A DNA stretch of 64,000 bases from assembly GCA_965218795.1 (NCBI GenBank), contig OZ244653.1:736001-800000 (forward strand), read 5' to 3'. The notes under the pieces were generated by a model. The model worked only from the letters and a program-made list of their open reading frames with translations, did not search any database and was not told where the DNA came from. Positions 47,865-51,513 of the stretch are shown here, in pieces (position 1 is the stretch's first letter; every line of letters begins with the position of its first letter). A program made the position numbers and the translations under genes. This DNA comes from a bacterium (GTDB lineage Bacteria > UBA8248 > JACPRG01 > G963555815).

Positions 47865-48209
47865 ATGGCAAGTTCTTGGAGGGCCTCCTTGTCGCTCAGG
47901 ATACTCTCGGCTTTCCTCATCGCACTCACGCTGGTTGCCTGCGGGCCGTCCTGGCGGGCCCGCTTCGTGAGAGAATCTGTTGATCAAGCGACCCGGGATT
48001 CCGTAACAAAGAGGCTGGGCGCGCCCCACTTCACCCGCGAACTGGACTCCGGCGGGTCCGTCTGGGTCTATCAGTACAAAGGGTCACGGCCGTTTTTGAC
48101 GACGTTTCGCAGTCACGCCCAGGGCGGCGGCTCCTACTGCACGGAGTTCATCCTGACCTTCGACGAGAAGAAGATCCTCCGTGAGTGGAAAGCCCACGAT
48201 TGTAATTAG
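47865..48209 (+). CDS. Small lipoprotein (BamE/SmpA-like pattern)
   Basis: Lipobox LVAC; LGAP...WVYQY...LTFDEKKIL. Confidence 0.65.
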   Translation: MASSWRASLSLRILSAFLIALTLVACGPSWRARFVRESVDQATRDSVTKRLGAPHFTRELDSGGSVWVYQYKGSRPFLTTFRSHAQGGGSYCTEFILTFDEKKILREWKAHDCN

Positions 48210-48359
48210 ATTCGAAGGGAAACCGGGGGCCAAGCCCTCTACAAACCTTATCCCCAACGCCGCGCGCTGAGACGTCTCGCTCCGTGTGTCCTTCTGATGG
48301 CCTTGTCCCTTGCGGCTTGCTCCTTTGTTCAGAAGATGGGGGGGAATCCGTATCAGGCC

Positions 48360-48700
48360 CTGCTCTGTTAGCCCGAGACCGGATCCCCGCCGTACCCCCG
48401 GTCATCTTTCATCACGGGATGGTCGTAGGCCTTCATGGACTCTCGGGCGCCTCCGAGCGGAGGTATTCGCTGGAGTCGTTTTGTCACGCCCTGGCGGGGG
48501 ACGGTTACCTGGCTTCCCTCCCGGTCCGGAGGCTCCAAACCCCCGGCCCGTCATGGCGGTGGATGACCGGGGCGGTACAGCCGGAGCAACACCGACTGCC
48601 GTCCGGGTCCGACGCGCGCCCACCGACTGTTTTACGCGGTCGGCCCTACTGGTCGGCCGTGCGGGCGTTCCTGGACAAGTATGTGAAGTCATCCGAGGAT
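48360..48700 (+). pseudogene. Degraded alpha/beta-hydrolase (dienelactone hydrolase-like) remnant
   Basis: PPVIFHHG...LAGDGYLASLPVRR joined to a C-terminal YWSAVRAFLDKYV with the core missing. Confidence 0.35.
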
Positions 48701-48969
48701 TTCTCTTTCCGGTTCGGCTCGGATTCATGATCGAGTTCCCGGCCTTCGGTCGTCTCCCTCCAATCCTTTCCGCATCATTTGTTTCGGTTTTTCTAATCCG
48801 GCAAATCTGTGTAATCTGTGGATTCAATCTCAACATGGAGAATGGAATGGACGCCTCCCACTCCCTGATGTCGGACGGCGAGAGGGCTAAAGTGGACCCA
48901 CGGGGGCCGACGGCATCACAGTGCCCAAGGGGGAAGAACAAACTCTTCCCAAGCCAACCGGAGGGTCCA

Positions 48970-49999
48970 ATGATGAAGACTGGCAGAACGGTCGTGGGCG
49001 TGGATACGGCGAAAAGGGTGTTTCAACTGTACTGGGTCGACATGGAGACGGGCGAGATCATGGGTCTGAGGCTGACACGGGCGAAGTTCCTGGAGCACTT
49101 CGCCAATCGCGCGCCGTGCCTGATTGGCATGGAGGCGTGCGGCGGCTCGCAGCACTGGTCGCGCCGGCTGCAGGAGCTGGGCCACGCGGTCAGGCTTCTG
49201 CCGGCAAAGATGGTCAGACCGTTCGTGGGCGGCAACAAGAGCGATGTACATGACGCACGCGCGCTCTGGACGGCGGTGCAGCAGCCCGGCATCAAGACGG
49301 TTGCGCTCAAGAGCGAGGAGCAACAGGCGGTCCTGGTGCTGCATCGCATGCGCCAGCAGCTGGTGAAGTTCCACACCGCCCAGATCAACGGCCTGCGTGG
49401 TCTGTTGGCCGAATACGGCGAAGTCATGCCGCAAGGCCGGGCCGGTATGAGGGGGGGGTATGGCCGTGGCCCTTGAGCGGGTCTCGGAACGATTGCCGGC
49501 GATGGTCGTGGAGACCTTGCGTGAGCAGTGGGCGCGTGTGGCCCGGCTCGACGAGGAGATTGGTGATATCGAGCGGCGGCTCAAGCTGTGGCATCGGGAC
49601 AATGCGGCCAGCCAGCGGATCGCGGAGATCCCCGGTGTCGGGGTGCTGAGCGCGACCGCCGCGGTGGCCGCGATGGTCGATCCGGGCGCGTTCAAGTCCG
49701 GCCGGGAGTTTGCCGCCTGGCTGGGTCTGGTGCCCCGACACAGCGGCACCGGCGGGCGGGTTCGCATGCTCGGCATCTCCAAGCGCGGGGACACCTACCT
49801 GCGGACCCTGCTGATCCACGGCGCCCGCTCGGTGCTCACCCACACCAAGGCGCCGCCGGAGTGGCGGGTGCGACTGGCCGAGCGCCGGCCGGCGAACGTC
49901 GTCGCTGTTGCGCTGGCGAACAAGACGGCGCGCACGATCTGGGCCTTGCTGGCCCATGCCCGGGCGTACCAACCAAATTTTGTCAGTCAGGCCGCGTAA
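48970..49999 (+). pseudogene. IS110-family DEDD recombinase with a +1 frameshift in a G8 run (49451-49458)
   Basis: GVDTAK, GMEACG, KSDVHDA (DEDD); IPGVG, FKSGREFAAWLGLVP, SKRGDTYLR, VALANKTAR. Confidence 0.9.
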
Positions 50000-50258
50000 G
50001 CGCGGTTGGCGACAGGAACCACCAACCAAGGAGGTGGCACGCTGAAAGGTTGCGCAAGGTACGACAAGGTGTGATGGCCAACAGGTCAGACCGCGATCCG
50101 CCAAGCCTGCATGTCGTCAGGGGCGAAAAGCCCTCAAGGAGAATGAGGCGCGGGTCGGCAGATTCCATCGGGGCCAGCAGGCACAAGCCCTGCACAAACA
50201 GGCCGCATATAGAACTGCAACCTGTTGTCCGGAAACACCAAATCGTCCCTCGCAAACC
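50000..50258 (+). ncRNA. Predicted seekRNA/bridge RNA of the IS1111 element
   Basis: Two parallel stem/internal-loop modules (50105-50149 and 50158-50218) whose loop strands match the target site and the element's own ends. Exact RNA ends are unknown. Confidence 0.8.
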
Positions 50259-50280
50259 GGGAGGCGTCCATATAAACGAT

Positions 50281-51513
50281 ATGAATTCCGTGAAGTATCT
50301 GCTTATCGGTGGCGGGTTGGCTTCCAACCGGGCCGCCAAGACGCTTCGCCAAAAGGACTCGGAGGGTTCCATCCTTTTGGTGGGGGAAGAACCGCACGTC
50401 CCGTATAACCGGCCTCCTCTGTCGAAAGAATTCCTGCGCGGGGAGAATCCGAGGGGGAAATTGTTTTTCGATCAGGAAGGATACTACGGCGAAAAGATGA
50501 TTGGTCTCAGCCTGAACGCCCGGGTGGCGGAGCTGGACCCGGCGGGAAAGTCCGCGAAGCTGGAGGGGGGCGAGACCGTTGCGTTTGAAAAGGCATTCAT
50601 CGCCACGGGCGGACGGCCCGTCAGGCTGAGTGTTGCCGGCGCGGACCTGGACGGCGTTCACTACCTGCGCGATCTGGACGACACGGAAGCCATCGCGGCC
50701 GAGGCGGAGGAGGGCAAGCGCGCGGTCATCGTGGGGGCCGGCTTCATCGGCCTGGAAATCGCGGCGTCCTTGAGGCAGATGGGTGTCGAGGTGAACGTGG
50801 TCGAGGCGGAATCGCGAATCTGGTCCCGATTCACGGACGAGACGCTTTCCGGCTTTTTCCAGAATTACTGCGCGGAGAAGGGGATCACCTTCCACACGGG
50901 GGATACGGTTTTCGGGATCCTCGGCGAGGGACGGCCTTCTGCCGTGACAACGGCATCGGGGAAGGAGATCGCGTGCGACTTCGTCGTCATCGCCATCGGC
51001 ATCGTGCCCAACGTGGAGCTCGCCGAAGGCGCGGGGCTGGAGGTGGATAACGGCATCGTCGTCAACGAGTTTCTGCAAACCTCGAATCCGGATGTATACG
51101 CCGGCGGTGACTGCGCGAATTATCCGGACCCGGTGTTCGGCAAGCGGCGACGGGTGGAGCACTGGGGCCATGCGGGGTATTGCGGCACGCTGGCGGCCCA
51201 GAATATGTCGGGCGAGAAGAACAGGTACGACCATTTAACGACCGTCTGGTCCGACATCTTTGATCTCAAACTTCTGTTCGGCGGTGACGAGCACGAATTC
51301 GACCGGGTGCTGTTACGCGGGAAGCTGGAGGAGAAATCATTTGTGGCGTTTTATCTGAAAGAGAATCTTGTCCGGGCCTATTTCTCCGTGAACTCCGACA
51401 TGAAGCTGCTGCGCTTTTATCAGCGATTGATCAGGGAGAACATCGACCTCAGCGGCAAGGAAGTACAGCTCCGGGACCCGGAATTCGATGTGAAGGAATT
51501 TTTTTCGGAATAG
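50281..51513 (+). CDS. FAD-dependent ferredoxin reductase-type oxidoreductase
   Basis: IGGGLA, PYNRPPLSK, ATGG, GAGFIGLE, YAGGD, RVEHW, WSD. Confidence 0.92.
   Translation: MNSVKYLLIGGGLASNRAAKTLRQKDSEGSILLVGEEPHVPYNRPPLSKEFLRGENPRGKLFFDQEGYYGEKMIGLSLNARVAELDPAGKSAKLEGGETVAFEKAFIATGGRPVRLSVAGADLDGVHYLRDLDDTEAIAAEAEEGKRAVIVGAGFIGLEIAASLRQMGVEVNVVEAESRIWSRFTDETLSGFFQNYCAEKGITFHTGDTVFGILGEGRPSAVTTASGKEIACDFVVIAIGIVPNVELAEGAGLEVDNGIVVNEFLQTSNPDVYAGGDCANYPDPVFGKRRRVEHWGHAGYCGTLAAQNMSGEKNRYDHLTTVWSDIFDLKLLFGGDEHEFDRVLLRGKLEEKSFVAFYLKENLVRAYFSVNSDMKLLRFYQRLIRENIDLSGKEVQLRDPEFDVKEFFSE

Follow-up and report, generated by a model that had tools for sequence, protein, structure and literature searches.

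An IS1111-group insertion sequence whose guide RNA appears to target the gap between Shine-Dalgarno sequence and start codon

Introduction

We analysed a 64,000-nucleotide (nt) stretch of bacterial DNA (hereafter the window; assembly GCA_965218795.1, contig OZ244653.1, positions 736,001 to 800,000), in which an insertion sequence of the IS1111 group stands immediately upstream of a reductase gene. The RNA-guided recombinases of the IS110 and IS1111 groups are established as programmable, and each element is thought to seek one sequence. Target choice by an RNA guide is established in these groups, as described in the texts of three studies (PMC11208160, PMC11208158, PMC11187229). Comparison of the window element with its relatives makes it very probable that it carries its own guide RNA directed at the gap between a Shine-Dalgarno (SD) sequence and the start codon, and that most of the relatives sampled share this habit. 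A preliminary description of the window had proposed that the element targets translation-initiation regions; that proposal proved right in substance, while the register of its guides, the abundance of target sites, the part played by the G of ATG and the question of precedent need correction.

Results

The span of the element (Table 1) is exactly that shared with a second copy in the same genome, which consists of one 5.17-Mb contig, and the ends were defined likewise in 75 related loci. Its subterminal inverted repeats (48847-59 and 50259-71) are perfect reverse complements over 13/13 base pairs (bp), and 60-odd relatives show the same layout, in which short extensions separate the subterminal repeats from the ends. 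The non-coding region (NCR) 3' of the transposase gene measures 275 nt (50000-50274), compared with 130 nt on the 5' side (48840-48969); a longer NCR downstream of the transposase gene is among the criteria for the IS1111 group given in the text of PMC11187229, which also describes IS1111 transposases as 330-350 amino acids (aa) long with the motif GL-P----S(t)G. The transposase gene is split into two frames, of which the first (48970-49476) holds a RuvC-like DEDD_Tnp_IS110 domain (PF01548, E 4.5e-11) and the second (49460-49999) a Transposase_20 domain (PF02371, E 8.2e-21). The C-terminal open reading frame (ORF) carries GLVPRHSGTG, which fits the IS1111 motif. Because the domains, the subterminal repeats, the long 3' NCR and this motif all fit, we assign the element, from its sequence, to the IS1111 group of the IS110 family. 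The element makes no target duplication, as empty and occupied copies of a repeat in the host of a relative show nothing doubled.

Table 1 Features of the insertion sequence, its guide RNA and the interrupted locus (window coordinates).
Feature	Position	Strand	Remarks
Left half of target, end of intergenic leader (..AACATGGA)	48831..48839	+	Aligns with the native Shine-Dalgarno TGGAGG of orthologues
IS1111-type insertion sequence	48840..50274	+	1435 bp, including its own core dinucleotide GA at 48840-41
Left subterminal inverted repeat ATGGACGCCTCCC	48847..48859	+	7 nt inside left end; conserved in relatives
DEDD transposase gene, two frames (48970-49476 and 49460-49999)	48970..49999	+	Broken at a run of eight G (G8), 49451-49458
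Bridge/seekRNA structured core	50083..50223	+	RNAalifold consensus, 54 sequences, 32 pairs
RNA outer stem	50083-86/50220-23	+	Consensus fold
RNA stems leading to first loop	50094-101/50150-57 and 50105-08/50146-49	+	Consensus fold
Target loop, 5' strand (right-target guide) CATGTCGTC	50109..50120	+	Complements top strand of core and right flank
RNA inner hairpin closing first loop	50121-33	+	Consensus fold
Target loop, 3' strand (left-target guide), CAAGGA + core GA + AUG	50134..50145	+	Reads as top strand of left junction
Donor-module stems	50158-60/50216-18, plus inner stems	+	Consensus fold
Donor loop, 5' strand, ATTCCAT	50161..50170	+	Complements left end ATGGAAT
Donor loop, 3' strand, CATATA + GA + A	50205..50215	+	Equals right end, core and first left-end base (circle junction)
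Right subterminal inverted repeat GGGAGGCGTCCAT	50259..50271	+	3 nt inside right end
Right half of target: target-kept core AA + CGATATG	50275..50283	+	Start codon at its end
Target gene: FAD/NAD(P) pyridine-nucleotide-disulphide (ferredoxin-type) reductase, 410 aa	50281..51513	+	PF07992, E 4.3e-66; PF14759, E 2.3e-12

Orthologues of the reductase in four related genomes are 67-71% identical and share its start, the ATG at 50281-83. Their leaders have ..TGGAGG(T/C)CCC-ATG without interruption, which in L097 and L098 reads ..CTGCACC(C/T)TGGAGG(T/C)CCC-ATG, and the TGGA to the left of the element in the window aligns with this SD. The exact pre-insertion sequence of this locus was not found in the nearest genomes, with their 67-71% identical reductases; what they show is the SD and the start. 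After the insertion, the GGAGG nearest to the reductase ATG lies 16 nt upstream, within the right repeat, so the reductase has probably lost its effective SD. At the other end of the element, the GGA of the flank and the first G of the element together make a GGAG that lies 6 nt before an ATG in the left repeat (48837-48849); this ATG, at 48847, is in frame with the transposase, and the frame is open up to it (48847-48969).

The 3' NCR holds the putative guide RNA. In an alignment of 54 distinct NCRs of relatives, the consensus pairs of Table 1 were formed in 98.6% of cells, and 14 of the 32 pairs showed compensatory changes; none of 500 column shuffles reached the observed covariation, and sliding the partners by 1-3 columns left 31-42% paired. 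The two modules of the preliminary description (50105-50149 and 50158-50218) are the two internal loops of this consensus structure, and the covariation check bears out its view of the element as IS1111-type with a 3' bridge/seekRNA, as do the domains, the repeats and the NCR itself. The structural evidence comes from the alignment, because the fold of the single sequence (50084-50240) is weak by itself: it has a z-score of -1.76, 13 of 200 shuffles fold equally well, and its donor module folds differently. Scanning positions 48000-51000 with cmscan matched no Rfam family at E <=1. Related elements in metagenomes track the window up to 50109-50113, where the guide starts, and then continue with other guide sequences. 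The RNA is presumably transcribed and bound by the transposase; a search for RNA sequencing runs containing the stretch gave none.

Both loops contain strands that match the ends of the element or its flanks, and every guide and flank string quoted in the preliminary description was found where it had been placed. In the donor loop, CATATAGAA at 50206-50214 is identical (9/9) to CATATA (50269-74) joined to GAA (48840-42), and ATTCCAT at 50162-50168 is the reverse complement (7/7) of ATGGAAT (48842-48). In the target loop, CAAGGAGAA at 50135-50143 agrees at 8/9 positions with CATGGAGAA (48834-42), a match that extends to 10/12 over CATGGAGAATGG. On the opposite strand of this loop, CATGTCGT occupies 50110-50117, and the reverse complement of 50110-50118, GACGACATG, agrees with the right flank in the window, AACGATATG, at 7/9 positions, with a G-T wobble at one further position. 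In 20000 mononucleotide shuffles of 50000-50258, matches as good arose with frequencies of 0.0006 (exact 9-mer), 0.003 (exact 7-mer), 0.04 (8/9, left) and 0.09 (7/9, right), and all four never occurred jointly (0/20000). The 5' strand of the donor loop is nearly invariant among the 54 relatives, as are their left ends, and the donor loop follows the right end, since relatives whose right end is CATACA carry GATACAAA, compared with CATATA here.

The guides overlap on a 2-nt core, giving an ideal site CAAGGA-GA-CGACATG of 15 nt rather than 16, because the final A of CAAGGAGAA corresponds to the base with which the element itself continues after the core, and not to the target. This shifts by one the register given in the preliminary description. 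At the junctions of relatives, the left side carries the core of the element and the right side that of the target (AA/AT in L064, AA/AG in L068), and in the window copy the left side reads GA and the right side AA; the second copy has GA on both sides. One host genome contains an uninterrupted copy of a repeat, TTTGGGG-GAGAGGGATGCG, whose sequence is that of the two flanks of the occupied copies, left and right, joined together; it was found with a shorter pattern after a first search with a longer one had given nothing. From this uninterrupted target and the junction cores, the empty site in the window would have been CATGGAAACGATATG, i.e. CATGGA-AA-CGATATG, the second of the two options offered in the preliminary description. 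In the RNA the core is followed by AUG, which agrees with the bases that open the left end, and we infer by analogy that this AUG is comparable to the handshake guides of IS621, as described in the text of PMC11208158.

The second copy in the genome (C1:2589574-2590804, minus strand) is 98-99% identical to the first, has a 200-bp internal deletion and contains the same G8 run; its NCR is 100% identical over 275 of 277 query bases. It is embedded as TTCTTAGGGA / element / GACGACATGAACCCG, with TTAGGGA and GACGACATG as its immediate flanks, and the latter, at the right junction, is complementary at 9/9 positions to the guide at 50110-50118. The ATG there opens a 38-codon signal-peptide ORF, which after a frameshift in a run of five G (G5) leads into a 314-aa ORF for a substrate-binding protein. 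Both copies (2/2) directly precede the start codon of a gene, lie between an SD-like motif and ATG, and are co-oriented with the downstream gene, in agreement with the preliminary description.

We extended the comparison to relatives in other genomes. A DNA search of 51 genomes of the phylum gave matches in 6, including that of the window, and a protein-seeded scan, with one genome per species, confirmed 521 loci, and the analysis used the best 80 of them. Of these loci, 75 had a right end, and the removal of 6 duplicates and 1 short flank left 68 unique sites; 61 sites had a left flank, in which a strict SD was defined as GGAG, GAGG or AGGA in the last 9 nt plus the core. An ATG follows the right end by 3-11 nt, mostly 6-8 nt, in 58 of the 68 unique sites (12.1% expected from 27200 random positions in the same loci), and this ATG opens at least 60 codons in 35/68 (null 4.8%). 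A strict SD precedes the left end in 42/61 sites (null 7.3%), and SD and ATG occur together in 41/61 (null 0.8%), showing that insertions of these homologues are enriched between an SD-like motif and ATG, as the preliminary description had predicted. In all cases, the transposase gene of the relatives has the same orientation as the target gene.

Guides and flanks vary together among these elements, in which, as in the window, the 3' strand of the first loop resembles left flank plus core and the 5' strand complements core plus right flank. The right guide matches its own flank at 6.9/9 positions on average, compared with 4.28 +/- 0.11 when guides are permuted among 67 unique sites, and the left guide at 4.88/7 compared with 2.81 +/- 0.16 (60 sites); in neither case did any of 500 permutations reach the observed match. 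This covariation supports the identification of the loop at 50109-50145 as the target loop, which had been made from the window sequence. Elements whose guides lack an SD motif have matching non-SD flanks (L040, L052, L090, L036); in L040, for example, the left guide GCAGCGA faces the flank GCAGC|GA, and the right guide AAAGGCCCTC faces the flank GAGGGCCTT. Because elements with non-SD guides show correspondingly different flanks, the target loop appears to be truly programmable.

Of the 50 distinct guide pairs, an SD motif stands in the left guide of 39, the right guide of 43 carries AT at positions 2-3, and 36 combine the two features; at positions 5-10 the right guide shows an almost even mixture of bases. 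In a tree of 52 transposase rows, the class with SD and AT (38 rows) fills both major clades, with the other classes nested within, and well-supported branches require at least 6 changes. The hosts belong to Pseudomonadota, Acidobacteriota, Nitrospirota and Actinomycetota, and the transposases of the sampled relatives are 65-100% identical.

We also considered whether supply of the left-repeat ATG by a host SD might be a feature of the whole family. This was rejected, as the ATG is in frame and open to the transposase in 17/54 left ends, mostly in the subclade of the window. Of 54 distinct left ends, 20 leave the transposase frame open all the way to the end of the element, compared with 13 and 12 for the other two frames; in a separate count, ORFs starting at the left-repeat ATG run into the transposase in 13/54, end <=30 nt from its ATG in 5 and are short in 36.

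The window insertion is present in sequenced populations, as both of its junctions are bridged by contigs from four runs of four studies. The G8-run frameshift is common to both copies in the genome, of which the second has further indels besides its deletion, and the transposase frame would stay open with seven G at 49451-49458. A relative (L009) has an intact 341-aa transposase with no break at the equivalent place. With its transposase frame interrupted at the G8 run, the window copy may be inactive, unless this run is an assembly error. Short metagenome contigs have seven G here in one run and nine G in another, and the genome has a second G-run frameshift, that in the G5 run of the gene adjoining the second copy (L003, about 1380-1440). 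Homopolymer error may for these reasons be the source, and the G8 and G5 frameshifts may represent either real slippage or errors of assembly. The window element is an ordinary, probably decayed member of its group.

Discussion

In the mechanism that we propose, excision would yield a circle at whose junction the right end (CATATA), the core (GA) and the left end (ATGGAAT) are joined, and the donor loop would pair with this junction. The target loop would pair with the target on both strands. Its 3' strand, CAAGGA plus GA, would pair with the bottom strand of the left target, and its 5' strand would complement the core and CGACATG on the top strand of the right target. The DEDD recombinase would exchange strands at the 2-nt core where the guides overlap, in an order that we presume. 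Since the programmed site, CAAGGA-GA-CGACATG, has the form of an SD block, a 5-nt spacer and ATG, the element would insert between ribosome-binding site and start codon, in the orientation of the gene, splitting the gene from its SD. In the guides of most relatives sampled, a purine SD-like block adjoins the core, and an AU matches the AT of ATG by pairing. The spacer part varies and covaries with the flanks, and a minority of elements have been reprogrammed to unrelated sites. Such targeting is presumably maintained by selection.

Several observations weigh against this interpretation. The two insertions in this genome are a small sample, and the transposase frame is broken in both. The relatives are not independent of one another, being the nearest neighbours of one query rather than the whole IS1111 group, and 23 of the 58 ATGs downstream of right ends open fewer than 60 codons, some of them at contig ends, in frameshifted genes or in SD-ATG-like repeats (the L017 group). 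At its edges the target loop has AU and AUG, which in the free RNA can pair with each other, as the single-sequence fold indicates, and their conservation may be partly structural. The genome itself contains no perfect site for the window guide: there are 0 sites with <=1 mismatch, 10 with 2 and 150 with 3, and of these 160 sites 61 end in ATG and 33 open at least 60 codons. Target sites had been called plentiful in the preliminary description, which fails for this guide in this genome. Lastly, the closest named transposase that we found, of the ISBcen4 family (RefSeq name, a gene on a Burkholderia ambifaria plasmid; 64.7% identity to the L009 relative), belongs to an element with the same ends and the same NCR architecture, whereas its left guide, GGCAAAA, and left flank, CGGCAA, are not SD-like; by its sequence, ISBcen4 would not belong to the SD-targeting set or would lie at its margin. 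A protein homologue search (8000 scored, 7996 matches) returned no informative names.

Pairing also leaves part of the start codon unexplained, which is a further point against the proposed mechanism. Of 60 sites of relatives, 36 place the G of ATG opposite a guide A (31) or G (5), neither of which pairs with it, and the base opposite the first guide position is nevertheless G in 56 of 60. Because G is so prevalent at a position that faces A or G in 36 sites, something other than Watson-Crick pairing must, on this comparison of guides and flanks, contribute to the signal of the start codon. The contribution may come from read-out by the protein, from a non-canonical pair or from the loss of insertions elsewhere. 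The guides of the window do spell an SD-like purine block and CATG, as had been noted; in relatives the G of ATG usually is not specified by Watson-Crick pairing.

These data could alternatively reflect survivorship, in which the guides specify a purine block, a spacer and ..CAT, insertions in coding sequence are lost, and intergenic ones at real starts remain. We regard this as possible, though rather unlikely. The prevalence of a G that pairing leaves unspecified speaks for it, as does one host genome (G051, loci L105-L116), in which 6 of 12 unoccupied GGAGANNGACAT sites are followed by G, the other half lacking it, compared with 5/5 sampled insertions of that element; most near-matches in the window genome, moreover, are not starts. 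However, the guides themselves carry the SD-like block (39/50) and the AU of the start codon (43/50), insertion between SD and ATG harms expression of the gene and so is not obviously neutral, and some occupied sites are repeats without a long ORF.

A constraint of folding or of the protein is a somewhat weaker candidate. Here GGAG..AAAUG and NAUG would be conserved at the edges of the target loop because the fold or protein binding requires them, and the SD/ATG look of the targets would be a by-product, not a maintained targeting strategy. In line with this, CAU (50110-12) pairs with AUG (50143-45) in the single-sequence fold, the post-core AUG also matches the conserved ATG of the left end and would so be fixed by the donor, and the 5' strand has A at position 2 in 48/50 and T at position 3 in 43/50 guide pairs. 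However, 7/50 pairs without AT and 11/50 without an SD block keep the fold and have matching flanks (L040, GCAGCGA/AAAGGCC; L090, ACTGGAA; L052, GACGGA), indicating that the anchor positions are free to change, and the helices around the target loop covary normally. It is scarcely credible that the GGAG/CATG-like bases belong to the element, its ends having been placed too far inwards, or to a target duplication, with nothing targeted: flanks can be alike across copies (ATGAA follows both genome copies), but within a single genome they vary between copies of an identical element (L062-L069), what follows on the right is the conserved N-terminus of host genes, an uninterrupted target equals left plus right flank with nothing missing or doubled, and BLAST identity of the two genome copies stops at the proposed ends, target-like bases apart.

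The IS1111 seekRNA elements ISEc11, ISPa11, ISKpn4 and ISPst6 (Siddiquee et al. 2024, PMC11187229) share with the window element, according to the text of that study, a DEDD transposase of ~340 aa, the GL-P----S(t)G motif, subterminal repeats and a long 3' NCR, and their seekRNAs likewise have the top-strand-complementary segment 5' of the bottom-strand one, the two overlapping in the target. Unlike the elements described there, the window element appears programmed for SD, spacer and ATG, with a variable spacer, as a habit of most of its sampled relatives. The text of PMC11187229 mentions neither a translation-initiation target nor IS900, and ribosome-binding sites appear in it just for a cloned cassette; a target logo of this kind may nevertheless have been published for some IS1111 member. 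IS1111 work in the reference list of Durrant et al. 2024 (PMC11208160) concerns Tn21-family inverted repeats and integron attC sites. In the literature searched, we found no IS1111-group element aimed at ribosome-binding sites.

In the IS110 group, IS621 reportedly has REP sequences as its targets, a finding attributed to Choi and colleagues in 2003. Its bridge RNA, in the descriptions given by the texts of Durrant et al. (PMC11208160) and Hiraizumi et al. (PMC11208158), resembles the window RNA in being bispecific, with a target and a donor loop and a shared 2-nt core, in a left guide that pairs with the bottom strand and a right guide that pairs with the top strand, and in handshake guides that match the partner DNA. 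The window element differs from IS621 as described there in that its RNA lies in the right end rather than the left, the order of the guides is reversed, the core is GA/AA rather than CT, and the repeats are long and subterminal.

For a precedent of the specificity itself we turned to the wider IS110 family, for which the statement in the preliminary description that no such case was known is wrong. IS900, from Mycobacterium avium subsp. paratuberculosis, belongs to the IS110 rather than the IS1111 group, and Doran and colleagues are said to have described in 1997 that it targets translation initiation signals. The text of PMC8141618 reports the target motif CATGNNNNNNTCTCCTT, which is the reverse complement of AAGGAGA-N6-CATG, that is, an SD and a start codon. 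According to the same text, typical terminal inverted repeats are absent from the IS110 family. It also states that IS900 carries its transposase antisense to the target gene, with the hed ORF on the other strand using host signals, whereas the transposase of the window element and of its relatives is co-oriented with the target, and in this respect the element is no relative of IS900. We liken the two in target choice alone, and because their orientations are opposite, their targeting looks convergent. No link between IS900 and a bridge RNA was found in the literature searched.

What would be new here, as far as guides and flanks can tell, is that most sampled relatives, in several phyla, keep SD and start-codon anchors in a bridge RNA around a variable spacer. 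The natural programme would then be a functional class of sites, the SD-to-start gap, kept over most of 50 distinct guide pairs. The relatives provide a natural data set of guides and targets, with tolerated mismatches, mismatches in the core and one position unexplained by pairing, which should be useful for understanding the specificity of IS1111-type recombinases. They would further define a class of insertion that uncouples a gene from its ribosome-binding site and leaves the coding sequence untouched, could mark candidate start codons in unannotated genomes, and offer a likely explanation, at the level of RNA, for a target choice resembling that of IS900.

More speculatively, and with more doubt than confidence, these elements might form a large multi-phylum IS1111 clade with class targeting in place of the targeting of single sequences, in which an SD-like block and AU serve as fixed anchors around a drifting spacer, the G is read by the protein or through a non-canonical pair, without Watson-Crick pairing, and insertion at translation starts is invariably in the orientation of the gene. 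In the subclade of the window, the in-frame left-repeat ATG, 6-7 nt after the host SD, might tie production of the transposase to the host gene and its promoter, much as was proposed for hed of IS900, with the target gene switched off. If so, the switch-off would be reversible given precise excision, which we assume from the family.

Additional observations

Three relics of related IS1111 elements occur in other parts of the genome, at C1:2653794-2654087 (L004/L006), C1:5086463-5086639 (L005) and C1:1322232-1322268 (L007). The second of these retains both RNA modules, with a different target loop (TATGGATAGG / TGTGGAGAA), and the third is a 37-bp right end followed by GCCTGTCATG.

Some of the relatives occur close to one another or in repeats. 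In L037 the right flank holds the beginning (MKTNRTVV..) of a further transposase gene of this type, so that the elements are nested or adjoining there, as also in L120 (487-3104) and L119 (1501-3800), and annotated plasmids of Bradyrhizobium and Paraburkholderia have two IS110-family transposase genes in tandem. In one genome (G052; L017-L021 and L123), at least 5 copies of one relative sit in a dispersed repeat, ..CCCTTTGGGG|GAGAGGGATGCGGAGG.., which mimics SD-ATG yet opens just 23-31 codons and has one uninterrupted copy in the same genome.

At the reductase locus, the frame of the gene is open for 231 codons further upstream (49588-51513), across the NCR of the element and into the transposase gene, which may be due to chance in a genome of 60% G+C. 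A conserved GTAATCTGTGGAT motif lies at 48795-48825, 25-80 nt upstream of the reductase start; it is also present in the orthologues, twice in L098, and may be an operator or promoter element.

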